From contig CAIMDG010000002.1 of the NCBI GenBank assembly GCA_903839725.1, forward strand, positions 135,739-199,738: a stretch of DNA of 64,000 nucleotides, in the 5' to 3' direction. The position numbers were made by a program, and so were the translations under genes. Origin of the DNA: an uncultured bacterium (GTDB lineage: Bacteria > Patescibacteriota > Minisyncoccia > Phycocordibacterales > PALSA-1337). The notes below the pieces were generated by a model. The model did no database searches. It was not told the DNA's origin and saw only the letters and a program-made list of their open reading frames with translations. Below are positions 28,465 to 49,864 of this stretch, in pieces. Positions within the stretch are counted from its first letter, which is position 1; every line of letters begins with the position of its first letter.

Positions 28465-28818
28465 TTATTTTTTTGGTGCAGTAGCTGAAGTAGCTGCTTC
28501 CTTTGCTGATTTTGCAGCATTCATTTCTGCTTCCTTGGCTTTCAATTCGAGTTCCTTTTGCATCTTACCTCCATGACGTACGAACTTGCGTGTAGGTGCA
28601 AATTCACCGAGGCGGTGTCCAACCATATCCTCGGTGACCAATACTTCTACGTGTACGCGACCATTATGAACTCCAAATGTGAATCCGACCATTTCTGGTG
28701 AAATCTGAGAACGGCGTGACCATGTCTTAATAACCCCAGCTGTTGCAGGTTTCTTGCCTGAGATTTTAGTCAGGAGTCTCTCTTCGATATAGGGTCCTTT
28801 TTTAAGCGATCGTGCCAT
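28465..28818 (-). CDS. rpsS: 30S ribosomal protein S19 with a Lys/Ala-rich C-terminal extension
   Basis: [16 protein letters not shown]...[13 protein letters not shown] is the S19 core, followed by the tail [28 protein letters not shown]. Confidence 0.92.
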
Positions 28819-28935
28819 AAAATATTATCGTAATGTTGAAAAGTAGAATAAAAGAAGCTCCGATGAGCTCGACAAGTATGCTAACAGAATGAGTATATGA
28901 AGTCAAGGATGTGGCTTGAATATAAGGCGAGAATG

Positions 28936-28975
28936 AAAAAGCCGCCCTCCATATTGCGAGGGCGGCGGTGATTTT
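28936..28975 (-). terminator. Intrinsic terminator after the LysA-like gene, immediately upstream of the rpsS leader
   Basis: gccgccctc catattgc gagggcggc, a 9 bp GC stem followed on the minus strand by ttttt. Confidence 0.7.
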
Positions 28976-28983
28976 ACGGGACG

Positions 28984-30300
28984 TTAGCCGAGGTGAATGA
29001 TGTGCTCATCTCCTTCGAGACCGAGATGGCGCGCATTCAAATCATCATACGTTTCCGCACGACAGATTCGGCGAACATTGCCGAGACCGTCGAGGAGTAA
29101 TTCCTGCGGACGACAACGGCCGTTGTAATTGAAACCCATGGCCGAGCCGTGCGCACCAGTATCGTGGGTGATAAAGAGATCCCCTTCACGAGGATCCGGC
29201 AGCATGCCCTTTTTGAGCACCAGATCACAGCCTTCGCAGATGGGGCCGGCACCAGAGACTTCAATAATTGGACGACTACCTTCGCCGATCAGAAAACCAT
29301 CTTGCTCCAACACGGTGCAGTGGTGATAGGCTTTGGAATACATACCAACACGCATGAGCGCGGGCATGGCAACTTGGAGACCGGCGAATTCGATATATTT
29401 GCGATATCGATTGATCACGCGGTTGACCAATACTCCATGGGGGCCAGTTACGAAACGGCCACTTTCCATGAAGAGAGACGGCACAAAACCGTTAAGTTCA
29501 AAAAATTGAACTGCTGATTCCTTGCACTCAGTGGCGAAGGCCTCGAGGTCGAATGGTGTATCACCGGGGCGATACGGAATACCCAAACCGCCACCAACAT
29601 TGACGAATTCGAGTTCGATACCGAGCTCGTCAAGCAAACGCTTCGCAATATCGAGAAGCAACTTATAGGTCGCGACCAAATTCGTATAATCGAGGTTATT
29701 CGAACACACCATCGTGTGTAAACCGAAACGTGTTGCGCCGGCCTGATAGGCTTGGCGATACGCTTCGACGATCAGTTCGATCGGAACACCATACTTGGAA
29801 TCAGGGTCAGCCATGCTGCGCATATCCTTCGAACCGTCAGCCGAGGAAACGCCCGGATGTAACCGAAAAGAAATGAGATTCGGAAATGGGCCGAGAGCTT
29901 GAACTTTTTTGATGTATTCAATTCCGTCGAGGTTGAGGATGCAGCCACCACAAGAACGCAGCGCTTCGATCAACTCCTCTTCCGAGGTGTCGTTCGAAGT
30001 GAACATGATATCCTCCGGTCGGGCTCCGGCGTAGCGAGCCAAACGGAGTTCAGGAATGGAGCTGCAGTCGAAGCCGCAGTCTTCAGATTTGATGATGTCC
30101 ATGATTGCCGGCTTGGGAAGCGCCTTGACCGCGTAGAACTCCTTGAAGTCCATCTGGCGGAAGCTGAATGCATTCTTCAAGGTGCGGAGTGTATCCCGGA
30201 TTCCTGGCTCATAGTAAATATGGTAGGGCGGAGCGAATTTTTTGTTGATCGCAGCGAGCTTTGGAAAAAGCGCCTGCATGAATTCTTGACTCATTGGCAT
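28984..30300 (-). CDS. PLP-dependent fold-III decarboxylase (Orn/DAP/Arg decarboxylase family; LysA-like, carboxynorspermidine decarboxylase not excluded)
   Basis: YAVKA (PLP lysine), VNVGGGLGIPY, ESGRFV, GPICEGCD and HDTGAHGSAMGFNYNGR motifs. 438 aa. Markedly GC-richer than the flanking r-protein genes. Confidence 0.6.
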   Translation of the reverse strand: MPMSQEFMQALFPKLAAINKKFAPPYHIYYEPGIRDTLRTLKNAFSFRQMDFKEFYAVKALPKPAIMDIIKSEDCGFDCSSIPELRLARYAGARPEDIMFTSNDTSEEELIEALRSCGGCILNLDGIEYIKKVQALGPFPNLISFRLHPGVSSADGSKDMRSMADPDSKYGVPIELIVEAYRQAYQAGATRFGLHTMVCSNNLDYTNLVATYKLLLDIAKRLLDELGIELEFVNVGGGLGIPYRPGDTPFDLEAFATECKESAVQFFELNGFVPSLFMESGRFVTGPHGVLVNRVINRYRKYIEFAGLQVAMPALMRVGMYSKAYHHCTVLEQDGFLIGEGSRPIIEVSGAGPICEGCDLVLKKGMLPDPREGDLFITHDTGAHGSAMGFNYNGRCRPQELLLDGLGNVRRICRAETYDDLNARHLGLEGDEHIIHLG

Positions 30301-30520
30301 AATTTTTTGTATTCAATTGTTGTAGCGATACTACTGTTTTTTGACACATATCGCCGATACTGTGTCTGAACGAAGACTACTGATAATACTGAATACTGTC
30401 AAGAAACGCCCGAAATCTGGACCCGTACTATTCTTGACACAAACTCACTCAAAAGGTAGAAATACCCCAGGACTGCCGTATTGTTACGGTAGTAGAAAAC
30501 TCAAAACCACATACTGACAC

Positions 30521-31024
30521 ATGAATACCCCTAAAAATACATTGATACGCACAGCGACCCTCGAAGTCTTTGAAATGTTCGGCCCGTTATTCGAGGACCG
30601 TTTCATTACCCAAGTTGAAGGGCGTGTGGCGGCAGTCATCACCGTTCTCAACCCGCACCACACGCGTGAAAACAGCCACCAACCGATGGTGCTCGAAAGC
30701 ATCATCCTCGGTAATAAAGATGTTTCCAAATGGCAACACCCCTACAATGAATACGCTGAAGCGAAGGCCAAGGCTGCCTGGCGGTCTGCGCGATCAAATC
30801 ACCTCATATTCGCCGGCGCTCCGCATCTGATCGAATCTGACGATTTCAAATTCGCCGGTGGCGTCTATGATGACGGTATCGTGGTTGCCACGAGCGGCCT
30901 CAAATGCTGGGAAGATGATCTGTTTGTCTCCCAAGTCGTCGCCTCGGCCATCAAAGCACACGTAATCAAGACGGCAAATCCTGTGATCAATGAGCCGAAG
31001 AAGGCTGATTTGTTTTTCCGGTAA
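30521..31024 (+). CDS. Hypothetical protein (167 aa), GC-rich
   Basis: ORF with coding-like composition and no recognised family. Confidence 0.45.
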   Translation: MNTPKNTLIRTATLEVFEMFGPLFEDRFITQVEGRVAAVITVLNPHHTRENSHQPMVLESIILGNKDVSKWQHPYNEYAEAKAKAAWRSARSNHLIFAGAPHLIESDDFKFAGGVYDDGIVVATSGLKCWEDDLFVSQVVASAIKAHVIKTANPVINEPKKADLFFR

Positions 31025-31151
31025 TCGTCATGATTACCATTGCACCGTTCCCTCTCGTAGGGAACGGTTTTTTATTTCATCATTCTTGGACAAAAAATAT
31101 ATATGAGAAACGCCGCCCAGTTGAAGCCGGGCGGCGTGCGATAGTGAACTA

Positions 31152-32357
31152 TTATTCGTAGGAAACTTTGGCGGCGGCGAAACCTGCCTCAATTTCCTCG
31201 ATCTGGGCACCAACATCCGTGGCACAAATGGCATACCGAATCCACTTGTCGAACGGGATACCGCAGAGGCCGGTATTATCCGTCATGATGTTGTTAAACT
31301 CCTCACCATTGGCGATGTCCTGACCAAATGCCTTCGTTGGGGCATCGAACAGTAAGAAGAAGCCCGCTTCCGGTTTGACGGCGAGGCGCATGCCCCGACG
31401 TTTCAAAACTGACGCGACGAGATCGAGACGTTCGGCATACACCTGATGAACTTCCTCGATACGATCGCGGTGCTTTTCGAAGACATCGAGCACGCCTGCC
31501 GCCGCAAAAGCGACGAAGCCACTGTCGAGATTACCCTTGATCTGGGTAACGTCCGCGATGAATTCGGGTGAACCCGCCATTGCCCCGACGCGCCAGCCAG
31601 TAAAGTTACCAGCCTTCGAGGCAGAGAATGCTTCGATCCAATTCAGATCGCGGAATTCAAGAGCCACATCAGTCAACGTTACCGACTCGGGGCTGTTACT
31701 CAAGATGTGATATGCCCCGTCGTTAACAAGACGGACACCACGATCAGAACAGAAACGACACAGATTCGTGAGCCAATCACGCTTGGCAATGATGCCGGTC
31801 GGATTTTCCGGGAAGTTTAAGCAAATCATGTCGCCTTCGGTGATACCGATAAGGCTCTCCGGAGAAAACAGAAATCCCTTCTTGGGATCCAGCGGTAGCT
31901 CCACCTGTTGGATGCCCTTGATGGCACCGCAGACATATGCGGGCGTCGGATAACCAGGATTCGTCATGGTATAAACTCGCGACAATGAACCGGGACGTTC
32001 CCAGGTGCCGAGAGATTCCACCAACACCTGCAACATCGGTTTGATGCCCGGAATCGGTAGGTAGCTGATGACGTCCGCAGCATAATCCTTCAAATCACGC
32101 ACGACATGACACTGCACAAAACGACGCGCGAAGTCGGGGACACCCGGCGACCCGTTGTCCTGGTATTCATGCATCGCTTCACTGTCAGACATGACTGCGG
32201 CGGCGGCGGCCATGCGGGCCTCCAAAATGGCAGGTCCAGCTGGCTGGCCGACGGTGAGGTTGATGATTTTCTTGCCGGCAGCCATAGCTTCGGCGCGCTT
32301 GGACTTCGAACGTTGAAACACGTTCGGGGGAGCACTGGATAGGAGTCTTTCTCTCAT
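31152..32357 (-). CDS. Class I/II PLP aminotransferase (LL-diaminopimelate aminotransferase DapL-like; tentative)
   Basis: Aminotransferase fold with SASKAGNFTGWRVG (PLP-lysine motif of the SxSKxxGxxGxRxG type). About 400 aa. GC-rich. The start may be the internal MAAGKK (32285). Confidence 0.6.
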   Translation of the reverse strand: MRERLLSSAPPNVFQRSKSKRAEAMAAGKKIINLTVGQPAGPAILEARMAAAAAVMSDSEAMHEYQDNGSPGVPDFARRFVQCHVVRDLKDYAADVISYLPIPGIKPMLQVLVESLGTWERPGSLSRVYTMTNPGYPTPAYVCGAIKGIQQVELPLDPKKGFLFSPESLIGITEGDMICLNFPENPTGIIAKRDWLTNLCRFCSDRGVRLVNDGAYHILSNSPESVTLTDVALEFRDLNWIEAFSASKAGNFTGWRVGAMAGSPEFIADVTQIKGNLDSGFVAFAAAGVLDVFEKHRDRIEEVHQVYAERLDLVASVLKRRGMRLAVKPEAGFFLLFDAPTKAFGQDIANGEEFNNIMTDNTGLCGIPFDKWIRYAICATDVGAQIEEIEAGFAAAKVSYE

Positions 32358-32507
32358 GTTATGTTGTCTTTCAATAGCCTAGTTATATGTGATGAACATC
32401 GAGACGGCTACCTCTCGAGATCTTGTGTAAGACTACTTGAAATCATGATTTTGTCAACTGGATACACAAAAATGCCCTCCATTGAGGGCATTATATTTCA
32501 TATTAAC

Positions 32508-33017
32508 TTATTTTGGCTGTCTTTTCTTCTTATAGAAATTCTTGGACTCTCTCGTAATGGCAAGGATAGAAATCACTGCAATATATGAACCACTTACTTC
32601 GATAGGCATACGATATGTTGGATGTGTGATCACATTCGCCACGATAATATACAAAATAAGCACAGTCCACACGATCAAATACAATTCACCTGGATGAATC
32701 GATGTATGCATGTGGTGCCAACGACGAAATTCTTTTTCTGCACTATAGATAGCTAGGGCTGCGCCGTAAATTCCTGCGATGGCCAATAAAATCTCATTAT
32801 CAGCAAGAAAATTTTCATTATAAAAATCGTACACAATAGCTACGAAGAATATAAATGTCCAGAAATTGACCAGCATGCGCCATGCCCCGAATGTACCTAT
32901 TCTGCGAATTAATTTGAATATATTAAACATGTGCATGAAGTGAATATGCTTCTCTTTATTCATGAGGTGCAATAAATAGCACTGCAATATATTCGATAAC
33001 TCCTTTAACTTTTTCAA
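32508..33017 (-). CDS. Hypothetical membrane protein (low GC)
   Basis: 169 aa with 3-4 hydrophobic helices. Confidence 0.5.
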   Translation of the reverse strand: MKKLKELSNILQCYLLHLMNKEKHIHFMHMFNIFKLIRRIGTFGAWRMLVNFWTFIFFVAIVYDFYNENFLADNEILLAIAGIYGAALAIYSAEKEFRRWHHMHTSIHPGELYLIVWTVLILYIIVANVITHPTYRMPIEVSGSYIAVISILAITRESKNFYKKKRQPK

Positions 33018-33043
33018 CTAGTTTTTCAAACATATAATGGGAT

Positions 33044-33075
33044 TAGTATAACAAAAAACAGGAAGTGGTGCTCCC
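33044..33075. terminator. Hairpin terminator between the rplB end and the membrane-protein gene start
   Basis: aaaaaacaggaag tggtgc tccctgttttttg (stem with 1 mismatch, A/T-run flanks). Confidence 0.55.
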
Positions 33076-33100
33076 TGTTTTTTGTGTAAAAGTAAATAAA

Positions 33101-33952
33101 TTAATCTGACTTTTTCTTCTTGCCAACCTGACGTCGTGACACAACAAAGATATTTGAGTACTTCTTTGGAGTACGAGTCTTCTGGCCCTTTCCTGCTGGC
33201 TTACCCCAACGAGTCTTGAGGCGGCGAAGACCACGACCCTGACGCTGTTCACCTCCACCGTATGGGTGATCCACTGGGTTCTGGGCTGTACCACGAACTG
33301 TTGGGCGAATACCCATCCAACGTGTACGACCAGCTTTACCGATGTTAACGAGGCGATTTTCTTCGTTTGAAACTGCACCGATACTTGCCCATGCATCTTC
33401 GTGAACCTTGCGAACTTCACTTGAAGGCATCTTGATGTGTGTGTAACCTGCATCGTTAGCAACAACCTGAGCAAATGAACCTGCTGAACGAACGAGCTTG
33501 GCACCACTACCTGGCTTGATTTCGATATTGTAAATAAATGTACCGACAGGAATATTCTTGAGTGGGAGGCGGTTACCTGTTTCGATAGGAGCCTTTTCTG
33601 AAGTGATGAAAGAGTTTCCAACTTTCATTGTTTTTGGAGCAAGAACGTAACGCTTTGCACCATCCTTGTATGCAACAAGAGCGATGTATCCTGTACGGAA
33701 TGGATCGTACTCAATAGTCTTTACTGTCGCAATGATATCCTTCTTGTCATACATGAAGTCGATGATGCGATAGAGCTTCTTGTGTCCTCCACCCTTGTGG
33801 CGAACAGTGATGCGACCAAAGGCGTTACGACCCATGTCACGCTTGAAACCGAGCGTCAAAGGCTTGTACGGCTCTGAGGCGGTAAGGTACTGCTTGAATG
33901 GCAATACGGTCATGTGGCGACGAGATTTTGTTGTTGGGCGGAATGATTTCAT
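33101..33952 (-). CDS. rplB: 50S ribosomal protein L2
   Basis: MKSFRPTTKSRRHMTVLPF ... HKGGGHKKLYR is L2. Confidence 0.93.
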   Translation of the reverse strand: MKSFRPTTKSRRHMTVLPFKQYLTASEPYKPLTLGFKRDMGRNAFGRITVRHKGGGHKKLYRIIDFMYDKKDIIATVKTIEYDPFRTGYIALVAYKDGAKRYVLAPKTMKVGNSFITSEKAPIETGNRLPLKNIPVGTFIYNIEIKPGSGAKLVRSAGSFAQVVANDAGYTHIKMPSSEVRKVHEDAWASIGAVSNEENRLVNIGKAGRTRWMGIRPTVRGTAQNPVDHPYGGGEQRQGRGLRRLKTRWGKPAGKGQKTRTPKKYSNIFVVSRRQVGKKKKSD

Positions 33953-36139: not shown

Positions 36140-37327
<1,188 letters not shown>

Positions 37328-37578: not shown

Positions 37579-39894
37579 TTATGGAATCTGTACGAATGCG
37601 TTTGCTAGACCAGAAGTTATAGATACCGAGGCATCTTGAGTTGGGCCCGGACCATCAGCTGCACCTCCTGTACCAAAACTAATTCTTACAATACTAATTT
37701 TCTTGGCTGCTGACGTACCATTTGTGTTATCAACTGTGAAGTTGTAAGTAAATGTACGTGATGAGTTGACGAGGTAAGCGGCAACTGTGTCACCGGTAAC
37801 TGAGCCGGAAGCTGTAACATATGAAACTGTTGTTGAAGCGTCTGGACCAGATGATGTCGTTGTTGCAAGAGCAACATTGGCATTCTTACTGATGTAGATA
37901 GGATTGTCTCCTGTATTCACAACTGTGAATGAAATAGCGGGATGTGCGACACTCCATACACTCGAATCAGAGGCGATGACTACATTTCCCTTAGCTGAGG
38001 TTACATTTGTGATGACTGCTGCAGATGCAACTGGATCCTGAGAAACGATAGTAAATATCGCATCACTACTATCAGTAGCTAGATTAGACTTATCATACAA
38101 TATAGCCTTCACAGTAAACGAATTGTTATTACCAGCACTCATAGCTACAGGAACGGTCCATATATATGAACCTGTATTAGGAACAACATCTTCAGCAATC
38201 AACTCAACAAAATCATTTGTCTGAGCTCCGACTTTGTAATGAAGTTCCAATAACACTCCCGCTGTTGATGGTGCTCCAGTGGTATTCCAACGAATAGTCA
38301 TGGGACCATTCTCTGTATATCTCTCTCCCCCATTTGGACTTAACAATGTGATAGTAGGCTTTGAAAAATCAACACTTACCTTAAGACTATCTACAGGATA
38401 TAGAGGAGTTCCATAGGTGCTATTGATATCCGTTCGATATATAATCTCGGTTGCTTTCGCAATATTAACACCATTTGGATTCGCAGCATTTTCTCTACTC
38501 AAAGTAGTTAGTACGGTGAAGGTACGTGATGATCCTGCTGGTACAATAAAATACGAAGATCCGTCACCGGTAAGAGTGCTTGGATTTGCTGTTGTAGATG
38601 TAATGCGTGGTAACAATTCATTTGAGAATGAAATAGAAGAAACTTGGCCTGGACTAGTAATATTTATTGGTGATTTGAAATAAATCGGAACATTACCTGC
38701 GGTCAACGTAAATTTGAAACTTGCAGGATAACTACTGATTGAACCGTCTGTTGCAAGAGTAGGATTATTCCATCCTACCGTAACAGACATATCACTTAAT
38801 CTAGGTTGAGTGGTAACTACATTACCAATAGTAAACGGAGCATCACTTATATCCTTGAATCCACCACTTTGAACGATCACACCATTTCGGTCGGCTTGAT
38901 ATAGTTCAATCAAATACTTTCCAGCGATAATATTTGCTGGTATTTTCCAAGTAAATGTACCCTTCGTAAAGTGAGCTATCCCAATCTTGGTAACAGGAGA
39001 ACCAGTATTAGGACTACTTGGTCTCAGTTCAATATATACAGAAGAATTGAGTATTGGACCAATATCTGTCACCTGATTTATTGATCTTGTCCACTTAATC
39101 ACCATATCTTGCCCAACGTTATACACTTCTCCTCCATTTGGAGTGGAAACTGTAATTGGAGATGGTGGGATTGGTTGTCCGGTGAAAGTCTTTGTAAATG
39201 TAAGATTCTCGAGACCTGCTGTAATAGTAGAGATTGTTCGCTGTTCTCCAGAATAATAATTTATTTTTGAAATTTTGAATACTTTGGTACCACGTGCAGT
39301 TATCGGTAAATTCATGAACACTGAATGAAATACAAATGTTCGTGAACTTCCTGCAGGAATAACTTTTTGATTAACAGCATCTCCCGCCAACGATGCAGGG
39401 GTTATTGTTGTAGGAGCACCTATTCCCAACATCACACCAAAATCAATAAGTGTATTCCCTGTAATAAATATATTTGTATTTGATTGATTGGATATAGTGA
39501 TAGCTATATCAGCGTTGTATCCAACAATTATATTATTAGAGATAACAGGATCACCTACAGAAATAGAACTGGCCGAGACAGTTACTGCTGTAGTCAAACT
39601 TGGAACACAGGAATATCCTACTGGACACTTTGGAACTACTGGCAGTGTTGTACACGAATATCTTTCTGGACATGTAATAGAACCGGGACCAGATGTCACT
39701 TCAACCATCCCGCTTGAAACTGGCATTGCTGAGTTCTCAACTAATGTATTGTTTAAACTATTAGCAGATGCTGCAGTGAGATTCGCGTTACCAGAAATGG
39801 CAGCGATTGATATTCTCCCCTGTGTTGGTGATGAATACACTACGAACACAAGAGCAGTAAGAACGAGGACATTGGCTATGTGGTTTTTAAACAT
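37579..39894 (-). CDS. Large secreted Ser/Thr-rich surface protein (771 aa) with SPNGGE...IxW beta-sandwich-like repeats
   Basis: The signal/anchor MFKNHIANVLVLTALVFVVYSSPTQG is paralogous to the N-terminus of the 39945..41261 protein (shared ...YSSPT...ISGNANLxAAS...NN). Repeats TVSTPNGGEVYNVGQDMVIKWTRS and LLSPNGGERYTENGPMTIRWNTTG. Low GC. Confidence 0.65.
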   Translation of the reverse strand: MFKNHIANVLVLTALVFVVYSSPTQGRISIAAISGNANLTAASANSLNNTLVENSAMPVSSGMVEVTSGPGSITCPERYSCTTLPVVPKCPVGYSCVPSLTTAVTVSASSISVGDPVISNNIIVGYNADIAITISNQSNTNIFITGNTLIDFGVMLGIGAPTTITPASLAGDAVNQKVIPAGSSRTFVFHSVFMNLPITARGTKVFKISKINYYSGEQRTISTITAGLENLTFTKTFTGQPIPPSPITVSTPNGGEVYNVGQDMVIKWTRSINQVTDIGPILNSSVYIELRPSSPNTGSPVTKIGIAHFTKGTFTWKIPANIIAGKYLIELYQADRNGVIVQSGGFKDISDAPFTIGNVVTTQPRLSDMSVTVGWNNPTLATDGSISSYPASFKFTLTAGNVPIYFKSPINITSPGQVSSISFSNELLPRITSTTANPSTLTGDGSSYFIVPAGSSRTFTVLTTLSRENAANPNGVNIAKATEIIYRTDINSTYGTPLYPVDSLKVSVDFSKPTITLLSPNGGERYTENGPMTIRWNTTGAPSTAGVLLELHYKVGAQTNDFVELIAEDVVPNTGSYIWTVPVAMSAGNNNSFTVKAILYDKSNLATDSSDAIFTIVSQDPVASAAVITNVTSAKGNVVIASDSSVWSVAHPAISFTVVNTGDNPIYISKNANVALATTTSSGPDASTTVSYVTASGSVTGDTVAAYLVNSSRTFTYNFTVDNTNGTSAAKKISIVRISFGTGGAADGPGPTQDASVSITSGLANAFVQIP

Positions 39895-39944
39895 GTGAGT
39901 TAAATAATTTGTAAAGAATCAATATAAGTATACCTCTATATGGT

Positions 39945-41261
39945 CTAGTGGAACAAAGTTGCCTTGAGTGTATTGGGGATCGCCGCGTCTCTCAACATTA
40001 TTGCGGAAAGATTCGCGGTTGATGTTCCATAATTAATTCCATACACCTGAGGATATGCTGTTGATGATGGATATGAACCAGTTGCCAAGTAATTAGCAGA
40101 GAGGAACTTTGTTTGACCTGGGGCAATGTAGAAATATGATGAGCTGTCACCTGCCGAATCAGTACTCGTCATTCCTGTAGGCATTATGGTCAAAGTTGTT
40201 GTACCAATTGTCATAGGAAAAGCGGTTGGACCATCCTTAGATATGTACATTGGATAATTTCCCGCAGTTATCGAGGCATTGAATACAAATTTTTGAGCCG
40301 CAACAGCGTCAGTCGATGAAATACTTAATGAACCATATTTTACTCCGAGATTGGAAATGATTGGTGAAGAAATGCATGCGAAATTCACCGTCTCACTTTG
40401 TCCATCAACTGTTGTGATAGGTATATCAGTATTACTACAACTGTTGTACCAATACAAACGTGTTCCTTTTGGAGCAGTTATATTAGCAACACATGATCCA
40501 ACACCTGTACAAGTAAATGTAGCAACTGTTGTTGTAGAGGTTGTAGAAGTTGGTGATGCAACTTTTGTATAACACTTTTGTTCTGTAACAGCTCCATTAA
40601 ATATACACTTCACTTGTTCCGAAGTTACCGCGGGCGCCGATGATTTAATAACAAAATAGTTATCACTGATGTCATTTAATGCAATAAATGGATTTCTATT
40701 GATTACACTCTGACATTCGGCCGCACTCACTGTTGGACACAATGAAACCATGACCTTATATTTACCAGGAGCAACAAAAGACGGAATAGACCAAGAATAA
40801 TATGTATTCAATGTTATCAATGGATAATTATTCTCACCACCATTAATTGCATTTGTGACAATTTTTCCATTTGAATCAATCAAAGTAAGAGCAAATTTTG
40901 TAATGCCCTCTTCAATAACTGGAACATAGTTCCACTTAATCTTCACCGTACCACCAACATAATATGTCTCTCCACTATCTCCATTTGGTGAAACAACTGT
41001 AATAGGTACGACTGTACATGTATATCCACTTGGACATCCCTTTGGTTGAGGTGGGATAGGTGTACATACAAGATTTGTAGGACATACAACTCTTGATGAA
41101 GTAGAAACAGTTGAATTATTTAATGCAGTAGACGCTGCAGCAAGATTCGCATTACCAGAAATACCAGCAACTACTGACGAAGAGTATGATGTTGGCGAAG
41201 AATATATTGCAAAAGCAACGAGTGTTATAGCGAGAGTGTTTACAAAATGATTTTTTAACAT
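39945..41261 (-). CDS. Secreted surface protein (438 aa), paralog of the upstream gene
   Basis: N-terminus MLKNHFVNTLAITLVAFAIYSSPTSYSSSVVAGISGNANLAAAS and repeat VVSPNGDSGETYYVGGTVKIKWNY. Cys-rich near the N-terminus (CPTNLVCTPIPPQPKGCPSGYTCT). Confidence 0.65.
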   Translation of the reverse strand: MLKNHFVNTLAITLVAFAIYSSPTSYSSSVVAGISGNANLAAASTALNNSTVSTSSRVVCPTNLVCTPIPPQPKGCPSGYTCTVVPITVVSPNGDSGETYYVGGTVKIKWNYVPVIEEGITKFALTLIDSNGKIVTNAINGGENNYPLITLNTYYSWSIPSFVAPGKYKVMVSLCPTVSAAECQSVINRNPFIALNDISDNYFVIKSSAPAVTSEQVKCIFNGAVTEQKCYTKVASPTSTTSTTTVATFTCTGVGSCVANITAPKGTRLYWYNSCSNTDIPITTVDGQSETVNFACISSPIISNLGVKYGSLSISSTDAVAAQKFVFNASITAGNYPMYISKDGPTAFPMTIGTTTLTIMPTGMTSTDSAGDSSSYFYIAPGQTKFLSANYLATGSYPSSTAYPQVYGINYGTSTANLSAIMLRDAAIPNTLKATLFH

Positions 41262-41406
41262 ATATGTTACGCGATTAATGAACTACTGATAATACTAATA
41301 AAGAGAAAAGACACACCTCGATTGAGGTAGTGCCTTGGGTAGTGAGATAAGTATAGCAATAAAATATCTTCATGCAAGAAAGGTTATCCACATAAAGACG
41401 GGTAAT

Positions 41407-41441
41407 ATAAAATCGGCACTCCACGATGTAGAGCGCCGATT
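41407..41441 (-). terminator. Intrinsic terminator after the channel-like gene
   Basis: aatcggcactc cacgatgta gagcgccgatt (11 bp stem, 1 mismatch), followed on the minus strand by tttt. Confidence 0.55.
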
Positions 41442-41471
41442 ACCATAACAAGACCAAAATCAACTTACTGA

Positions 41472-42551
41472 CTAGGTCCCGGAGACTGGGTTAAGAGCCC
41501 GCCAATCAACCACCTCATCTATCCGATGTTCCGCTATATAAAATAACGACATGCCCCCTCTGAGCATGGCATCAGCAGATGGATTAAGAATTGGCGCCGA
41601 TTCACACGACTGATCAGTTGTGTATCCAATAGCAATTGCTCGGTATTCCCCGTTGAAAATAGCGAGCACCTGACCAAACGGAATCGGCTGAACAAAGTCT
41701 GGAATGTTGATCCGGAAGTTCGTGCCCGGATGATTGATGCTCACAAGTTCCCGAATGAGCTGCGTCGAACCAGGATTGAGCGTTGCCTGAGCGATCAATG
41801 AAGACCTCAATGAAGTGACGCATTCAATGTGCGGATTGACCGCCTTGATGAAGCGCGCATATTCATGCTTCTCCAGATACACCACTATGTGGGCATCTTT
41901 GCGAGCCTTACTGTTAGCGACGATCGTTACCGCCACTGTTCGCTCATCAAGTTCGTGACCGCTAATAACAATGGTTTTCGCAGTAGACACGCAGGCCCGT
42001 TCGAGCACTTCATCCTCCGACGTATCTCCTTGAACAAACTCGACCATCCCCGGAAAAGGATTTTCCGTCACATGCCGAGTAACTAACACTATTGAATGAT
42101 TCCCGATATGGTCAGACACTAATTGTCTAACGAGGTCACCAGTTTCCCGTGGCCGATATCCGAGTAAAACAATATGATCTTTCATCTTTAATCTCACCAG
42201 ACCTTTCTTCTTTGTTTGGAATTTCTCGTGGACAACAGCGAGTGACTTGCACATGGTGGAGATAAAAAATAATCCCCCACCAAAGAAGCTCACCAATGCT
42301 GTTAAACGTCCACCAATTGTTGTGGGAGAATACCCACTATAACCACCTCGCATAACATCGTTCACGAAATACCACCAGTAAACTGATGGCGAAACAATGC
42401 TTGCGTGCGGCTCAAAATGTTCAACTGCAACCCACCCTCCAAAAAAGGAAGTGAGAAACAGAATCACGAGGTATCTCCATTTCAGGTTGATGACGAGGCT
42501 GTACACCACGTCAATAAATTTTCCTTGCACATTTTTCCTTTCATTTTTCAA
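41472..42551 (-). CDS. Ion-channel-like membrane protein with a cytoplasmic RCK/TrkA-like domain (non-canonical filter-like segment TTIGG)
   Basis: Two N-terminal TM helices flank GYSGYSPTTIGGRLTALVSFFGG. They are followed by a Rossmann-like segment IVLLGYRPRETGDLVRQL and a second RCK-like half. GC-richer than its neighbours. Confidence 0.5.
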   Translation of the reverse strand: MKNERKNVQGKFIDVVYSLVINLKWRYLVILFLTSFFGGWVAVEHFEPHASIVSPSVYWWYFVNDVMRGGYSGYSPTTIGGRLTALVSFFGGGLFFISTMCKSLAVVHEKFQTKKKGLVRLKMKDHIVLLGYRPRETGDLVRQLVSDHIGNHSIVLVTRHVTENPFPGMVEFVQGDTSEDEVLERACVSTAKTIVISGHELDERTVAVTIVANSKARKDAHIVVYLEKHEYARFIKAVNPHIECVTSLRSSLIAQATLNPGSTQLIRELVSINHPGTNFRINIPDFVQPIPFGQVLAIFNGEYRAIAIGYTTDQSCESAPILNPSADAMLRGGMSLFYIAEHRIDEVVDWRALNPVSGT

Positions 42552-42614
42552 GGTCCTACTACCCTTGCATTAAAAAACACAATAACATAGATATGTATTA
42601 TTGTAAAGATATAG

Positions 42615-42642
42615 AAAAGGGCGGTCGCAAGCGACCGCCCTG
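42615..42642. terminator. GC-rich perfect palindrome terminator at the left edge of the GC-rich block
   Basis: gggcggtcgc aa gcgaccgccc (10 bp perfect palindrome), followed on the minus strand by ttttc. Confidence 0.65.
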
Positions 42643-42658
42643 TGATAGAGACGTGTGA

Positions 42659-44272
42659 TCAATTCGACTTCCAAACCACACTCAGGTTGGAACGGACCGT
42701 TCCTTCCCAGCTCGTAACGTCGTGCGGGTTGACCCAGACAACGTTTTTGTAGAGCGCATCCGTCAGCGTCAGGTCCGGGGTGCTCCCCGCAATGAAACCC
42801 TTCTGGCCAGCGTGTTTTTTGTCCTTGTAGGTCACCACGGTGGTGAGCCAGAAAAAACGCCGTTTACCATCAATGTCCCTGACCCAGGGCCGGTTCTCGA
42901 CAGGCCTCGACTGTTCCCAGTCATACTGCTTGCGAGACTCCATGACCTTCGGAGGGATGGCACTCACACCGGTGAGTGCCTCATTGATTTTGTAATGCTG
43001 GTAGACACGCATCGGACCGATGCCGTCAGCCGGGACGAACATGCTTGTATTCAAACCCTGCTTGGTGTCGTGATACGGCTCCAAGGCGAAGTAGTGATAC
43101 AGCTTGTTCTCCGGCGAACCTTCCCGTTCAAAGCGAAAAAACGCCGTGAAGGGTTGATCGTTTTCATCACTCGGCAAATCCGGAATACGAATGTCTCCCT
43201 TGTGATACAAGGGCATCGGCGAGAAAAATCCCGCTTGGAACCGTAGCGACGCCGCAGCATACCGCGACACTTCATACGGCAGATTGTTCTGCCGCAGAAG
43301 GAACGGATGCTTGTGAATGTCAGCTGGAGAAATCCATTCCCCGTCGCCGACAAACCAGCTCTTGATCATTGCCCAAAGGGTGTCGTCTCCCTGACGAATA
43401 ACTTGGACACCACCGAATTCGGGCCAGACAAAGATGAGTCCCTTCCAGTGGATGAGCGAAACTACCTCGATCCAGTTGCCATTGTCGTCCTGAATGAACT
43501 TGATGTCGCGTGGACTGCATGAGAAGAACCTGAGAAGTCCCAACGAACGGATCGTCGAAACATCAGTATTTTTTCCCATAAGCAGATCTTCGCCGACCCT
43601 GAATGAGACCGGCACACGGTTTTGCCCAGAAAAATTCGGGCTCGCCGCAAGACCAGAAACATCCATGATTTCTTTTATGTGTCCGAAGAAGGACGGAATC
43701 GAATACGCTGGCTCGATAGCCATAGACCAACGGAACTCTTCTTTCCCGTTGTTGACGATCCGGACAAAGTCCGGCGTCGACACGCGTTCGACTTCCTTCA
43801 TTGCCTCACCGCCGAGGACCCGAATCGAATTGAGCGGTTGAATCCGCTCATGATCCGTAGTTGGCAATGTTGTGATGAAGGTTGGCTTCATCGAATGGTA
43901 ACGCAGGTAGAGCGTGATATACCTGAGTGGCGGCAACTCCATTTCGAGATGCGACACAACTCCGATAGTGGCAATCGCGATGACCGCGAAGACCAGCTTC
44001 CATTTACGACGAACCCACGCTGCGCAGAATGCCCATCCAATGATCAGCACCGAAATACATTCAGGACTGTGGACGCGGGCAATGACGATGTAGGGTTGCC
44101 AGTAAGCCCGAAAAACAAACGTCAACCATATGACCGTAGCCATGAGGATGAACGCTGCCTTGCGATGCCGACCTGACCACCCCTGAAACCGTGTTATTGA
44201 ATTACGCACCAGCCAATACAGCCAGCCGTGTTCCTTTTCGATTGGAACAGAATCTTTATTTTCTGGATCCAT
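42659..44272 (-). CDS. Hypothetical membrane-anchored protein (537 aa; 3 N-terminal TM helices plus a large soluble domain), GC-rich
   Basis: TM segments AAFILMATVIWLTFVF, VLIIGWAFCAAWV and LVFAVIAIATIGVV. No recognised family. Confidence 0.5.
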   Translation of the reverse strand: MDPENKDSVPIEKEHGWLYWLVRNSITRFQGWSGRHRKAAFILMATVIWLTFVFRAYWQPYIVIARVHSPECISVLIIGWAFCAAWVRRKWKLVFAVIAIATIGVVSHLEMELPPLRYITLYLRYHSMKPTFITTLPTTDHERIQPLNSIRVLGGEAMKEVERVSTPDFVRIVNNGKEEFRWSMAIEPAYSIPSFFGHIKEIMDVSGLAASPNFSGQNRVPVSFRVGEDLLMGKNTDVSTIRSLGLLRFFSCSPRDIKFIQDDNGNWIEVVSLIHWKGLIFVWPEFGGVQVIRQGDDTLWAMIKSWFVGDGEWISPADIHKHPFLLRQNNLPYEVSRYAAASLRFQAGFFSPMPLYHKGDIRIPDLPSDENDQPFTAFFRFEREGSPENKLYHYFALEPYHDTKQGLNTSMFVPADGIGPMRVYQHYKINEALTGVSAIPPKVMESRKQYDWEQSRPVENRPWVRDIDGKRRFFWLTTVVTYKDKKHAGQKGFIAGSTPDLTLTDALYKNVVWVNPHDVTSWEGTVRSNLSVVWKSN

Positions 44273-44292
44273 AATTCCTTTCAGTTGGCGCG

Positions 44293-44889
44293 TTAGCGCT
44301 TTTGAGTGAATTCCTTGATTCGATCTTCCGGGGATTTCCGCGGTTGCACCGGAATAACCGGAGCAGGTGCAGGAGCAGGAGTTGGTGGCGGTGTGCTTTT
44401 AGCATCCGACGATCCGTTACCATTATTCTGTGCCGCCGCTGTTCGTTTCTCGATCTCTTCATCAATTCTGTCACCAATTTTGTAAGCAATTTTACGCTTA
44501 TCCCATAATGGCCAGACGAAGTAACCGATAGCGAAGCCGAAGACCATCGCCGGAATTTCCACGAACCAAAGCACGAGCTCGACGAAAGCGTTCGAATGAA
44601 ATCCTGTGAAGTAAAACATTCCCAAGGTTTGCACTGTCGAAACTATTGTCGCAATCAGGAACTTGCGTCCCGTTGATTGTCCGTAGATGAGGCCGAATGC
44701 TTTTTCAGCTGGTTTCTTGTGCGTCAGGTCGTAGATTCCTTTCGCGATGTTCTGCAGATACTGACGATCCAAGATGTAAGTCAGGATCCCGAGTCCGAAG
44801 AAGAACAGCACCCAAGAGGTGCTATACAAGCGGGTATGTTCGATAATACTATTCATATAGGTGTGTGGTTTTGGGTTGTCGAGGTTCAA
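44293..44889 (-). CDS. Hypothetical 4-TM membrane protein with a Pro-rich C-terminus, GC-rich
   Basis: 198 aa with the tail TPPPTPAPAPAPVIPVQPRKSPEDRIKEF. Separated by 20 nt from the downstream gene, so probably co-transcribed with it. Confidence 0.5.
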   Translation of the reverse strand: MNLDNPKPHTYMNSIIEHTRLYSTSWVLFFFGLGILTYILDRQYLQNIAKGIYDLTHKKPAEKAFGLIYGQSTGRKFLIATIVSTVQTLGMFYFTGFHSNAFVELVLWFVEIPAMVFGFAIGYFVWPLWDKRKIAYKIGDRIDEEIEKRTAAAQNNGNGSSDAKSTPPPTPAPAPAPVIPVQPRKSPEDRIKEFTQKR

Positions 44890-44963
44890 CTAAATTGTTT
44901 GTTTCATGTTGAAACTCTGGCATACATATTACACATATTTGCAATATTGTCAATATTGATGCG

Positions 44964-46088
44964 TTGTGCTATTCTAGAGCCATGAAAACAACTTCCGCAC
45001 TTATTATTGGAGAAGGACACTTGGCGAATCGCGTTACAAAATTACTCGAAACAAGAGGCTGTGCCACCACACATCTTCCTGAATATAACAACGAGGCAAT
45101 TCATACATTTACAAGAATCTTCTTGCTCGATGACAAAGATGAATACAATTTGCAGACACTCATAACCCTTATATCGTTGAAAAAAGATATTCGTATCACC
45201 ACTTCACTATTCAATGAGAATATTGCTCCTCATATACGAGCAGTACATCCACATATCGAAATATTAAATCCAGCCAAAATTGCCGCACCTTCATTTGTTG
45301 ATGCTTTATATACCTCACTTGAACATAAGCTCACCTACCAAGCTACTCCACAAGAAAATATTTCACACAACACTTCTGACAATCTCATTACTATATTGAT
45401 TGGATCATTTATTGCAGTTATTGTCGCAGCGACAATATATTTTCACATAGCAGATACTCTTCCCTGGGTTGATGCTCTCTATTTCGTTATAGCAACAGTC
45501 ACTACAGTCGGCTATGGTGATATCAATCTTCTGAATTCAAGTACGTTCAGTAAAATTATCGATATTCTTCTTCTCTTGAGTTCAATGTTCTTCGTATGGA
45601 CTATATTCTCTTTGACGATAAATCATCTCATAAAAAGTCGTGAGCGTTTGGCTCTTGGTAGAAAAACATATCCATACACAAATCACGTTATTCTGTGTGG
45701 GCTCGGCAGACTCGGATACTTCATTGCACTTGAACTTATTGCGCGAAATGAAAAGATTATTGTTATAGAAAAGAATGAGAGTTCTGCGTATGCTGAAGAT
45801 ATTCGTAATCGTGGAATCCCCGTATATGTAGGTGACGCACGAATGCCTCAAGTGTTGAAAGATGTTGCAGTGAGTCGATCGAAGGCATTTATGTCTGTGA
45901 TCAACAATGACTATACCAATCTTGAAATCGGTCTCAATGCCCGCTCATTCAAACCCGGCCTTCGTCTTATTCTCAGAATATTTAATAAAGAAACAGTACA
46001 AAAAATAAAAGAAAGTTTGGATATACATCTCGCACTGAGTATGTCAGCTGTTGCTGATGAAGTATTTGCAGATACATTGAATAAATAG
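44964..46088 (+). CDS. Potassium channel (TVGYGD selectivity filter) with N- and C-terminal TrkA-N/RCK Rossmann domains
   Basis: ATVTTVGYGDINLL filter between two TM helices. HVILCGLGRLGYFIALEL and N-terminal LIIGEGHLANRV GxGxxG motifs. Low GC, like the host. Confidence 0.75.
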   Translation: MCYSRAMKTTSALIIGEGHLANRVTKLLETRGCATTHLPEYNNEAIHTFTRIFLLDDKDEYNLQTLITLISLKKDIRITTSLFNENIAPHIRAVHPHIEILNPAKIAAPSFVDALYTSLEHKLTYQATPQENISHNTSDNLITILIGSFIAVIVAATIYFHIADTLPWVDALYFVIATVTTVGYGDINLLNSSTFSKIIDILLLLSSMFFVWTIFSLTINHLIKSRERLALGRKTYPYTNHVILCGLGRLGYFIALELIARNEKIIVIEKNESSAYAEDIRNRGIPVYVGDARMPQVLKDVAVSRSKAFMSVINNDYTNLEIGLNARSFKPGLRLILRIFNKETVQKIKESLDIHLALSMSAVADEVFADTLNK

Positions 46089-46116
46089 CAGTTTGAAGAC
46101 TCATTCAAGGAAATAG

Positions 46117-46148
46117 AAAAGCCCCGTCGGAAAACCGGCGGGGCTTGA
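46117..46148. terminator. Bidirectional terminator between the K+ channel gene (+) and the AAA ATPase gene (-)
   Basis: aagccccgtcgg aaaa ccggcggggctt (stem with 1 mismatch). A second small palindrome acagacga tg tcgtctgt lies at 46155-46172. Confidence 0.6.
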
Positions 46149-46176
46149 ATGTTACAGACGATGTCGTCTGTCTCGA

Positions 46177-48135: not shown

Positions 48136-48159
48136 AAGTTAATCTTTCTTTTGGTTGAG

Positions 48160-48193
48160 AAAAGGGGCGGGAAGAAAACTTCCCGCCCCCAGT
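48160..48193 (-). terminator. Intrinsic terminator after the coiled-coil protein gene
   Basis: ggggcgggaag aaaa cttcccgcccc (11 bp perfect stem), followed on the minus strand by tttt. A second hairpin aacggca aaacaa tgccgtt at 48198-48217 overlaps the stop codon. Confidence 0.7.
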
Positions 48194-48215
48194 TTGCAAC
48201 GGCAAAACAATGCCG

Positions 48216-49625: not shown

Positions 49626-49796
49626 AATTCAATCCGTGGTTCTATGTTTGGGTTGAGAGGTTTGTGTTGCACATTCGCTTTTCAAAGGACTAAACGAACG
49701 CACTACTGGAAAAGACCATAGCAAACTTATACGCTCTTGTCAAGAGAGTCATTTACTACAGCTTTACGTCTCCCGTCGACCTCAAAAGAGGGCCTT

Positions 49797-49830
49797 GACA
49801 AAGCCGTATTTCTGTATAGTATGTTGATTG
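49797..49830 (+). promoter_or_regulatory. Near-consensus sigma70-like promoter for the 49865..50398 gene, plus a divergent -35 palindrome
   Basis: ttgacaaagccgtatttctgtatagtatg has a TTGACA -35 and a TATAGT/TATGTT -10. Upstream, the palindrome ctcttgtcaagag (49734-49746) places a TTGACA on the minus strand 17 nt from TATGGT, a candidate promoter for the coiled-coil gene. Confidence 0.5.
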
Positions 49831-49864
49831 AGTCTCAAACCTCGAACATTACCAAAACCATATT

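Follow-up and report, generated by a model that had tools for sequence, protein, structure and literature searches.

In the 64,000-nucleotide stretch of DNA analyzed here (the window), the S10 operon is interrupted between rplB and rpsS, which raises the question of what occupies this junction, how the genes there came to it, and what they do. The canonical tuf-rpsJ-rplCDWB ... rpsS-rplV-rpsC order of the S10-spc super-operon is kept. The L2 gene rplB (33101–33952, minus strand; TIGR01171, 364.8 bits; PF00181 and PF03947) is the last gene of the upstream half, and the S19 gene rpsS (28465–28818, minus strand; TIGR01050, 119.6 bits) is the first of the downstream unit rpsS-rplV-rpsC. An earlier note on this DNA had placed the two genes 4.5 kb apart; they are indeed far apart, but the measured gap is 4286 bp (about 4.28 kb). 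Read along the minus strand, the order is rplB, a membrane protein ORF, an aminotransferase (AT), a decarboxylase (deC), and rpsS, with a 167-residue ORF (ORF167) on the plus strand between AT and deC. The identities proposed in the note at the level of fold or family, namely a LysA-like decarboxylase, a membrane ORF of low GC content, and a genuine GC-rich gene on the opposite strand, were borne out. Proteins identical to ORF167 and AT are known from 27–28 contigs, and the arrangement from rplB to rpsS is the same in all 18 contigs read for ORF167 (two places shown, the other 16 collapsed as similar); an assembly artefact is therefore excluded.

Predicted transcription signals surround each gene of the insert. 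Immediately 3′ of rplB is a terminator-like inverted repeat (33051–33085, minus strand) with a 15-bp stem, preceded by an A-tract and followed by a U-tract, and with a folding energy of −18.9 kcal/mol (z = −6.6; none of 200 shuffles was as stable). At the other end, rpsS has a predicted promoter of its own with an extended −10 element, TTGACT-17-TG-n-TAGCAT (28878–28906, minus strand), identified by a promoter scan and by conservation in the clade: the pattern TTGAC-N16–18-TAnnnT is present in 56 of 60 related loci, nearly always with a spacing of 17, and is kept even in loci where the gap is just 67–130 bp. The rpsS 5′ leader contains a short hairpin, GAGCUC-N4-GAGCU plus a U-run (28855–28870, minus strand; −7.2 kcal/mol, z = −2.0), which is conserved in sequence but shows almost no covariation. 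Between these boundaries, every cargo gene in the window ends in its own predicted terminator: the membrane ORF at 32471–32492 (minus strand; −16 kcal/mol, z = −3.8), AT at 31110–31137 (minus strand; 11-bp GC-rich stem, −23 kcal/mol, z = −5.6), ORF167 at 31044–31068 (plus strand; −17.6 kcal/mol, z = −4.0), and deC at 28941–28966 (minus strand; −21.9 kcal/mol, z = −4.1 versus shuffles). The last is the strong GC hairpin that had been described as closing the insert, and it is real, having a 9-bp stem with eight GC pairs followed by TTTTTCATT. Candidate minus-strand promoters were recognized by eye upstream of AT (TTGACA-16-TAGTCT, 32430–32457, under the promoter-scan threshold) and of deC (TTGACA-17-TAGTCT, 30374–30402). 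The rplB terminator and the sigma-70-type promoter of rpsS would split the S10 operon into two transcription units, and each cargo gene would be a self-contained unit ending in its terminator. Because of this split, the genes in between would leave ribosomal-protein expression undisturbed, and the conserved rpsS promoter together with the per-gene terminators suggests that the site tolerates inserts.

The premise that rplB and rpsS are adjacent as a rule does not hold for this clade. Among loci from 80 related species, with rplB 80–93% identical to that of the window, the junction is usually occupied and the cargo is variable. The rpsS gene lies inside the fetched DNA in 59 of the 80, with gaps from 8 bp to 6.5 kb, and eight more loci extend more than 7 kb beyond rplB without reaching it. 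Forty loci carry a small histidine kinase gene on the opposite strand, 8–11 a MacAB-like efflux set, seven besides the window homologues of the membrane ORF, seven AT/deC modules, and three a reverse transcriptase. We therefore favor, with a probability of roughly 0.6, the reading that the rplB/rpsS junction is a long-standing, clade-wide cargo slot in a Paceibacteria ('Candidatus Taylorbacteria'-like) lineage and that its lysine-type module is a mosaic exchanged between relatives. Integration hotspots of other bacteria likewise hold variable cargo between conserved core genes. This slot differs from them, and from the usual S10-spc arrangement, in lying inside an operon at a normally tight junction and in having a dedicated, clade-conserved internal rpsS promoter, and the cargo site has no integrase gene, tRNA gene, or repeats.

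The earlier note had read the insert as an acquired biosynthetic capability; spelled out, this would be a recent, lineage-specific event in which genes from a GC-richer donor outside the CPR entered an otherwise intact S10 operon. Base composition, the independent terminator of each gene, and the reach of the deC family into Desulfobacterales at ~50% identity are consistent with such an event. AT, deC, and ORF167 have GC contents of 0.546, 0.516, and 0.512 and GC3 values of 0.57–0.61, against means of 0.435 (S.D. 0.05) and 0.40 for the 60 genes of the window, and rank among its most GC-rich genes (z = 1.5–2.2), whereas the membrane ORF is at 0.363. This composition is unusual but not unique, because four further GC-rich genes lie at 42659–50398, and elsewhere the GC of the module largely tracks that of its host (the L061 deC, for example, is at 0.62 in a 0.62-GC genome). 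AT, the opposite-strand gene, and deC form a conserved three-gene module that several relatives share at the same junction. It is found there in L001 (deC 93% identical to that of the window), on the P0005 contig (69%), in L048, L006, L043, L086, and L095, and in L094, where rplB is just 76% identical to that of the window. A second, very divergent version occupies the junction in L028, L047, and L056 (deC ~42%, AT ~28% identical), and in L085, another Paceibacterium, the module lies outside the ribosomal operon in the same order and orientation. The closest homologues of AT, deC, and ORF167 are all from Paceibacteria/Patescibacteria, which argues against a non-CPR origin, and none of the four insert ORFs matches an integrase or transposase family in Pfam or NCBIfam, nor were flanking repeats found around the insert. 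With the junction occupied and the rpsS promoter present across the clade, a recent one-off insertion is very unlikely.

The genes do nevertheless move, by exchange among members of the clade, and to that extent the description of them as acquired survives. L048 and L056 encode the same L2 protein and are 87–91% identical in the nucleotide sequence of the flanks, but their cargo is almost without similarity at the nucleotide level, and the encoded AT and deC are only 31 and 44% identical. The L095 AT is 87% identical to that of the window (80% at the nucleotide level, above the 75% of rplB), whereas its deC is just 62% identical to that of the window and groups with L048 at 86%. Similarly, L094 and L085 share 81% identity in AT but 40% in deC. 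These incongruent, mosaic gene histories point to cassette exchange among relatives. All four cargo genes are under purifying selection (dN/dS 0.03–0.21; 0.07 for deC and 0.09 for AT). Their dS is 5–7-fold above that of the ribosomal flanks, an excess that could arise partly from synonymous-site constraint in highly expressed ribosomal genes; the only available non-ribosomal flank (250 nt) is 88% identical, similar to the cargo. In the proposed course of events, the module would be old in the clade, and relatives would exchange its genes one at a time or all together by recombination, probably using the strongly conserved ribosomal genes as homology arms. A ComEC DNA-uptake channel is also encoded in the window, at 57270–58721. 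Alleles arriving from higher-GC relatives would account for the GC excess.

The decarboxylase (28984–30300, minus strand) is a divergent, meso-diaminopimelate-decarboxylase-like PLP enzyme with the two-domain alanine-racemase fold (PF02784 and PF00278) of LysA (PDB 1KNW, 1TWI, and 4XG1). Its best NCBIfam match is lysA (TIGR01048; 230.8 bits, cut-off 297.9), which is also the best family for all three decarboxylase types found (193–231 bits, all under the equivalog cut-off), and it is just ~27–30% identical to the solved LysA enzymes. The fold family also includes ODC, ADC, L/ODC, and CANSDC, and an aminotransferase paired with a decarboxylase is the logic of the 1,3-diaminopropane and norspermidine routes. 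A polyamine module, in which a carboxy(nor)spermidine or other basic-amino-acid decarboxylase and AT would lead to a di- or polyamine, was accordingly suggested in the note. The residues that discriminate these activities favor LysA. Seven positions, K59, R282, R317, Tyr321, C355, E356, and D359, do not vary among 124 deC homologues; they include the PLP lysine, the EPGR-type arginine, the arginine and tyrosine of the specificity helix, and the catalytic cysteine with its adjacent glutamate. In the alignment, R282, R317, Tyr321, and C355-E356 correspond to Arg271, Arg307, Tyr311, and the C-E pair of Escherichia coli LysA. The equivalent of R317 binds the DAP carboxylate in diaminopimelate decarboxylases and is Asp in ODC, ADC, and carboxyspermidine decarboxylases (PMC7857480). 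There was no nspC/CANSDC match, and the speA, ODC, and DokD models scored far below lysA. With an arginine at this position in all 124 homologues, the polyamine reading is extremely unlikely.

The aminotransferase (31152–32357, minus strand; PF00155) belongs to a Patescibacteria-wide class-I/II PLP family. Its assignment as DapL-like is justified insofar as LL-DAP aminotransferase models (NF004937, TIGR03540; PDB 3EI5 and 3ASA) are its top NCBIfam matches, as they are for the 28%-identical type-B AT. All scores are well below threshold, at 126–182 bits against cut-offs of ~500–590 (about 20–30%; NF004937, 126 versus 585), and the family profile is far closer to the AspAT-like structure 2x5d (E = 8e-30) than to DapL structures, for which E is 2e-9 to 2e-7. 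By these measures AT is not a demonstrable DapL and may be a general aminotransferase; close paralogues (~50% identical) stand alone between topA and mfd in other Patescibacteria. The DapL route is used by plants and Chlamydiae, and linkage of AT to LysA-like and DapB-like genes is as expected for it. A homologue of the plant-type HTPA reductase (DapB) lies 3′ of AT-deC in L006, L043, L086, and L095 (profile versus PDB 5u5i/5ua0, E = 2e-9), and in L085 one lies 6 kb away from the module. This linkage is evidence for a role in DAP/lysine metabolism. To judge from these sequence relationships, the module most likely performs the last steps of that pathway, with deC presumably turning meso-DAP into L-lysine and AT acting upstream on the tetrahydrodipicolinate/DAP branch. 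Of the two functions originally considered, DAP/lysine is thus preferred to polyamine synthesis.

A scan of window ORFs turned up no dapA, dapF, asd, or lysC; lacking DapF, a cell could not pass LL-DAP on to a decarboxylase of meso-DAP. It is possible, although doubtful, that deC instead makes lysine from meso-DAP taken up from peptidoglycan, whether the host's or the cell's own, with AT as a general amino-group shuttle and no de novo DAP pathway in this reduced genome; the outcome of that scan, the auxotrophy that is general among CPR bacteria, the widespread stand-alone AT genes, their AspAT-like profile, and the occurrence of deC without AT in L002–L004 and L061 are in keeping with this. 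DapB would have no role in pure salvage, however, and the orientation-conserved triad persists to 35–40% identity, which argues that AT is functionally coupled to deC.

Because all deC proteins score below the lysA cut-off and the serine of the canonical C-E-S-G-D loop is replaced (C-E-G-C-D in the window, C-E-N-x-D in most of the subfamily), deC may act on a substrate related to meso-DAP. In another reading, the triad would make or modify a different diamino-dicarboxylate or related metabolite, such as a cell-wall diamino-acid variant, and its three or more sequence types would mark different substrates instead of allelic exchange. Three deC types only 35–45% identical and two AT types ~28% identical do occur at the same locus across relatives, and none of them reaches the lysA or DapL cut-off; C-E is followed by G, S, D, or N, and the DUF336 partner is always in the triad. 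Since every known DAP-binding residue is invariant across all types and the DapB linkage points to the ordinary pathway, this reading is improbable.

That partner, ORF167 (30521–31024, plus strand; cluster C7), which like the ribosomal setting distinguishes deC from known LysA genes, encodes a cytoplasmic protein of the DUF336/HbpS/EfgA fold that retains the ligand-binding triad. It differs from other proteins of the group (PF03928: HbpS, GlcG, the PduO C-domain, and EfgA) in being too divergent for detection by Pfam, in having an extra N-terminal helix (167 versus ~140 residues), and in its association with a pair of PLP enzymes from amino-acid metabolism, which PMC8153426 does not describe. 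As a guess, it would bind or sense a carbonyl intermediate or a cofactor in an accessory role. The membrane ORF (32508–33017, minus strand; cluster C4), of 169 residues or of 142–159 according to gene callers, has no Pfam or NCBIfam match. Its homologues at the junction occur with or without the enzyme module, and it is an independent cargo gene of the rplB/rpsS junction, with a dN/dS of 0.03 versus L001.

The S10 operon in the window is interrupted between rplB and rpsS, as the earlier note had reported. The series tuf (36140–37327, minus strand), rpsJ, rplC, rplD, rplW, and rplB ends with rplB (33101–33952, minus), and rpsS (28465–28818, minus), which is followed by rplV, rpsC, and the remaining S10/spc genes, is separated from it by a gap of 4286 bp. 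The gap contains four ORFs: a membrane protein of 169 residues (32508–33017, minus), a class-I/II aminotransferase of 401 residues (31152–32357, minus; designated AT), a protein of 167 residues encoded on the opposite strand (30521–31024, plus; designated ORF167), and a protein of 438 residues with the Orn/DAP/Arg-decarboxylase fold (28984–30300, minus; designated deC). The start of deC at position 30300 is backed by homologues that begin with MP; an exact-sequence look-up of the 438-residue protein gave no match because gene callers place later starts (431 or 436 residues). The exact ORF167 and AT proteins are recorded on 27–28 contigs, and the arrangement is identical in 18 of the 18 ORF167 contigs inspected (two shown completely and the remaining 16 grouped as similar). 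Because the same proteins and arrangement recur on so many independent contigs, an assembly artifact is ruled out. The AT, ORF167, and deC genes have a GC content of 0.51–0.55 (GC3 0.57–0.61) as compared with means of 0.435 (GC3 0.40) across the 60 genes of the window, and the membrane protein gene is GC-poor (0.36). The description of the insert in the earlier note as GC-rich, with a low-GC membrane protein gene, therefore holds for these genes, but high GC is not unique to them, as four genes at 42.6–50.4 kb are equally GC-rich.

The premise that rplB and rpsS are ordinarily adjacent fails in this clade. In a sample of 80 species-level loci retrieved with the L2 protein from GTDB genomes (L2 identity 80–93%), all of which belong to Paceibacteria, "Candidatus Taylorbacteria," or Patescibacteria MAGs, the gap is usually occupied. 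It measures 8–130 bp at 10 loci, which are the most distant relatives (L2 80–83% identical), 168–301 bp at five, and 0.8–6.5 kb at 44; at eight loci it exceeds 7 kb and rpsS is not reached, and at 13 the contig stops short of rpsS. The ORFs in the gaps were clustered, and the cluster representatives were annotated. A small histidine kinase on the opposite strand is present at 40 loci, an HlyD, ABC, and FtsX (MacAB-like) set at 8–11, aminotransferase/decarboxylase modules at seven, the family of the membrane ORF of the window at seven loci besides the window, and a reverse transcriptase at three. The insert in the window is one among several alternative cargos of this junction. The histidine kinase (~270 residues, HisKA and HATPase_c domains) is membrane-anchored and lies directly upstream of the rpsS promoter (for example, 11947–12768, minus strand, in the related locus L006); it is absent from the window, and no cognate response regulator was seen beside it in the relatives. 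The reverse transcriptase is of the RVT_1 family, has ~333–355 residues, and occurs in loci L033, L060, and L065.

An element upstream of rpsS is nearly invariant among these loci and comprises cTTGACTt, a spacer of 17 nt, and an extended −10 sequence that reads TGTTAACAT, TGCTACTAT, or, in the window, TGTTAGCAT. The predicted rpsS promoter in the window occupies positions 28906–28878 (minus), and a strict search for TTGAC-N16–19-TAnnnT was positive at 56 of 60 loci, including those with gaps of just 67–130 bp. A terminator-like hairpin follows rplB (33051–33085, z = −6.6), and a hairpin with a U-run stands at the end of each gene of the insert: the membrane ORF (32471–32492), AT (31110–31137), ORF167 (31044–31068, plus), and deC (28941–28966). 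The last of these, the GC hairpin seen in the earlier note, is real; of the 9 bp in its stem, 8 are GC pairs, and its folding energy is −21.9 kcal/mol (z = −4.1); on folding, the z values of all of these hairpins lie between −3.8 and −6.6. Candidate promoters of the form TTGACA-16/17-TAGTCT are predicted upstream of AT and deC. Most simply, transcription of the S10 operon would be split at rplB|rpsS throughout the clade, and because of this split cassettes would be tolerated there. The predicted promoter of rpsS would account for the frequent use of this otherwise tight junction as a cargo site, and cassettes with their own predicted terminators, two of them with a candidate promoter, could occupy it with ribosomal-protein expression unharmed.

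A GAGCUC-N4-GAGCU hairpin with a U-run is located directly downstream of the rpsS promoter (28870–28855, minus) and is also found in the rpsS leaders of ~40 of the closer related loci. Its sequence is highly conserved and covariation is near nil, so that covariation lends the structure no support, and it has no match in Rfam. It could be a terminator- or attenuator-like element or a 5′ stabilizer and represent a clade-specific ribosomal-protein leader. An Rfam scan of the entire window found no known leader or riboswitch and gave the tmRNA as its sole match.

The order AT, opposite-strand gene of ~170 residues, and deC recurs between rplB and rpsS in L001 (deC 93% identical), in a 66-kb JGI contig (deC 69% identical to that of the window), in L048, and in L094, whose L2 shares just 76% identity. 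L028, L047, and L056 contain a version of the same architecture that has diverged strongly (deC ~42%, AT ~28%, and the small gene ~40% identical). In L006, L043/L086, and L095, AT and deC are adjacent and the next gene, which encodes 247–276 residues, replaces the small gene; in L085, the complete triad is located far from any ribosomal gene. A metagenome scan with a narrow alignment of the ORF167 family identified five loci. All four cargo genes have dN/dS values of 0.03–0.21 between the window and L001, which indicates purifying selection, and ORF167 is therefore a real gene. The AT of L094 (5508–6767, minus) is split into two ORFs of 210 and 205 residues by a frameshift or sequencing error, or is a pseudogene. 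The acquired capability proposed in the earlier note for this one genome is thus less dramatic but more general, since the module and the occupied junction are properties of the clade.

The identities among the related loci point to a mosaic history. The L2 proteins of L048 and L056 are identical, and both flanks show 87–91% nucleotide identity, but nucleotide similarity between their cargos is almost nil and the AT and deC proteins are only 31 and 44% identical. The AT of L095 is 87% identical to that of the window in protein and 80% in nucleotide sequence, which exceeds the identity of rplB (75%); its deC is 62% identical to that of the window and 86% to that of L048. Similarly, L094 and L085 share 81% identity in AT and 40% in deC. 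From these incongruent identities, we infer that the histories of the cargo genes disagree with that of the ribosomal backbone and that cargo genes have been exchanged. Values of dS between the window and L001, two near-identical lineages, are 0.06–0.23 in the ribosomal genes and tuf and 0.44–0.77 in the four cargo genes. Either the translation genes are under synonymous constraint, or the cargo has an older or otherwise distinct genealogy; given that such constraint may act on ribosomal genes, the excess is not taken as proof of a separate genealogy.

Transfer of the insert as a mobile element, such as an insertion sequence or integrative island, was considered and rejected: the four ORFs gave no match to integrase or transposase families, and no bracketing repeats, mobile-element features, or nearby tRNA were found at the insert in the window. 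Since repeats and recombinase families are lacking there, replacement by homologous recombination, in which the conserved ribosomal genes would serve as arms, is suggested. A ComEC/Rec2 competence channel (PF03772 and DUF4131), relevant to DNA uptake and hence to the proposed exchange of cassettes, is encoded at 57270–58721 (minus). The nearest homologues of AT, ORF167, and deC are from Patescibacteria. Because the GC content of the module follows that of the host elsewhere (0.62 in L061, with a host value of 0.62; at or below that of the ribosomal genes in L095) and the clade ranges from ~0.35 to 0.64, the high GC of the module in the window fits alleles from a GC-richer relative rather than from outside the clade.

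The best family for deC is lysA (TIGR01048), with a score of 230.8 bits that is below the equivalog cut-off of 297.9. The deC proteins fall into three sequence types; the other two have a similar family ranking, with lysA scores of 200 and 193 bits, and a homologue from Desulfonema scores 280.9, just under the cut-off. The next models (exosortase-associated, DokD, speA, and FslC) score far below lysA. The alignment of deC spans the full length of LysA structures from Escherichia coli, Methanocaldococcus jannaschii, and others. Residues Lys59 (the PLP lysine), Arg282 (the EPGR-type arginine), Cys355 (catalytic), the adjacent Glu356, and Asp359 align with these structures and are invariant in 124 homologues. 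In decarboxylases with the alanine-racemase-type fold, a 3-10 "specificity helix" and a Cys loop set the choice of substrate; an arginine in this helix binds the DAP carboxylate in DAP decarboxylase and is replaced by aspartate in ornithine, arginine, and carboxyspermidine decarboxylases (PMC7857480). In deC, Arg317 of the specificity helix is invariant and Tyr321 is present in 123 of the 124 homologues; they are the counterparts of M. jannaschii Arg343 or E. coli Arg307 and of E. coli Tyr311, respectively, which bind the distal carboxylate of DAP. The LysA-like identity given in the earlier note is therefore upheld, with the reservation of the missed cut-off. Its alternative, a carboxynorspermidine decarboxylase in a polyamine module, is ruled out by the presence of arginine rather than aspartate at position 317, by the family scores, and by the lack of an nspC match in NCBIfam. 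The conserved residues support meso-DAP or a very similar compound as the probable substrate. The Cys loop departs from the canonical LysA sequence, C-E-S-G-D: it is C-E-G-C-D in the window, and most members of the subfamily have C-E-N-x-D. The ~52% identical homologue in the free-living deltaproteobacterium Desulfonema limicola (CP061799; locus L096, 5487–7260) is located directly downstream of a gene for an Lrp/AsnC-type regulator, and the C-E-N-x-D subfamily may be the ordinary LysA of this organism.

The assignment of AT is less specific. It has the class-I fold, and its motif SASKAGNFTGWRVG is presumably of the class-I PLP-lysine type. The top NCBIfam matches are models of LL-DAP aminotransferase (DapL), the enzyme that AT resembles according to the earlier note, but at only 20–30% of the cut-offs (126 versus 585, 123 versus 507, and 119 versus 593 bits; 182 versus 585 bits for the AT of the divergent version). 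When the family profile was compared with the PDB, AT was much closer to generic aminotransferases (2x5d, E = 8e-30; aspartate aminotransferases, ~1e-20) than to solved DapL structures (2z1z, 2e-9; 3asa, 2e-7). Paralogues of ~50% identity stand alone in other Patescibacteria, and AT adjoins a LysA-like gene in every module. The DapL-like label is thus retained for the model ranking and the linkage to DAP genes and weakened by the scores, and it is the genomic context that would place AT on the DAP branch.

In the four sister loci L006, L043, L086, and L095, outside the genome of the window, the gene adjacent to AT and deC is a DapB homologue. A profile of three of these sequences matched plant-type HTPA reductase (DapB) structures 5u5i, 5u5n, 5ua0, and 7t34 with E values of 2e-9 to 8e-9, and the catalytic motif E-S/A-H-Q-x-x-K is aligned in the match; single-sequence searches of Pfam, NCBIfam, and the PDB gave nothing or TIGR00036 at E = 0.23. 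In plants and Chlamydiae, this type of DapB is combined with the DapL route. The linkage to DapB is the strongest support for a role of the module in DAP or lysine metabolism. The companion genes dapF, dapA, and dapB, for which the earlier note had recommended a search, were not found within the 64-kb window, nor were asd and lysC. Literature searches on lysine or DAP metabolism in Patescibacteria or Parcubacteria returned nothing relevant.

ORF167 itself has no match in Pfam. An exhaustive profile search collected 292 relatives, mostly of 150–180 residues and one of them fused to a LacI DNA-binding domain; nine of 60 family members tested gave weak matches to DUF336/HbpS-like PF03928 (best E = 0.004, under the 25-bit cut-off), and ORF167 has the HbpS/GlcG fold. 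Lys82 is invariant in the family, and Ser125 and Asp132 are at least 90% conserved. The spacing of seven between this Ser and Asp is the same as in EfgA, in which Lys57, Ser114, and Asp121 are implicated in formaldehyde binding (PMC8153426), and spacing and conservation together suggest that the two sets of residues correspond. DUF336 proteins are binders or sensors of small molecules, often in aldehyde-handling pathways (PMC8153426). ORF167 might therefore assist the pathway as an accessory protein that binds or senses one of its carbonyl compounds.

LysA, class-I aminotransferases, and DUF336 are all known families, to which the enzymes add new, divergent members or relatives. As far as literature searches reach, three features appear to be new: the clade-wide cargo slot at rplB|rpsS, in which rpsS has a predicted promoter of its own, the triad with its conserved orientation, and the mosaic exchange among CPR species; nothing relevant was found on interrupted ribosomal operons in CPR. 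A broader reading, which we hold tentatively (probability roughly 0.3), is that the translation super-operon of Taylorbacteria-like CPR would contain recombination-anchored cargo bays at rplB|rpsS, fusA|tuf, and rpsG|fusA, with ultra-conserved ribosomal genes as homology arms and internal promoters insulating expression, and that species would swap self-contained cassettes there once DNA had been taken up. The AT/DUF336/LysA-like cassette would then be a functional unit that had gone unrecognized, one that pairs a DUF336 protein resembling a carbonyl sensor with DAP/lysine enzymes, and its route to lysine or a diamino acid might be a variant without DapF. The usual view of CPR bacteria is that they are auxotrophic for amino acids and that their core gene clusters are streamlined and stable, and DAP and lysine are the cross-linking residues of peptidoglycan. 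A DAP/lysine-type enzyme set kept under purifying selection in an S10 junction, and apparently exchanged between species, offers a concrete example, open to testing, of the way in which very small symbiont genomes acquire and reshuffle metabolic genes and gives the poorly understood DUF336 family a new genomic context. It also calls for caution in CPR binning and phylogenomics, as syntenic blocks of ribosomal proteins are not contiguous.

A second interruption, of 13 kb (37579–50398), separates fusA (50533–52677) from tuf and encodes a 771-residue surface protein with a Kre9/KNH domain, two K+-channel/TrkA-N proteins, an AAA ATPase, and several ORFs without a family. The other GC-rich genes of the window are in this interval (42659–44272, 46177–48135, 48216–49625, and 49865–50398; GC 0.51–0.56), and the same junction contains different genes in L095 and in the JGI contig. 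In the str/S10 cluster, a third junction that is occupied lies between rpsG (53110–53580) and fusA; it contains a gene for a 122-residue 23S_rRNA_IVP (four-helix-bundle) protein (52705–53073, minus; GC 0.344) in the window and an ORF6N-domain gene with a 116-residue ORF in L095. In the relatives, an NlpC/P60 gene and a 135-residue ORF are present between rplC and rplD in L086, a Taylorbacteria genome (2945–4174), and a PIF1-family helicase and a 410-residue ORF between rplE and rpsN in the JGI contig. The tmRNA gene of the window (10789–11180, minus; 99 bits in Rfam) encodes the tag peptide AKSTVSPYFGQKDFAFALV according to ARAGORN. An ORF of 121 residues (10468–10833) overlaps its 3′ end and has the lowest GC content in the window (0.29), and for these two reasons it is probably not coding.
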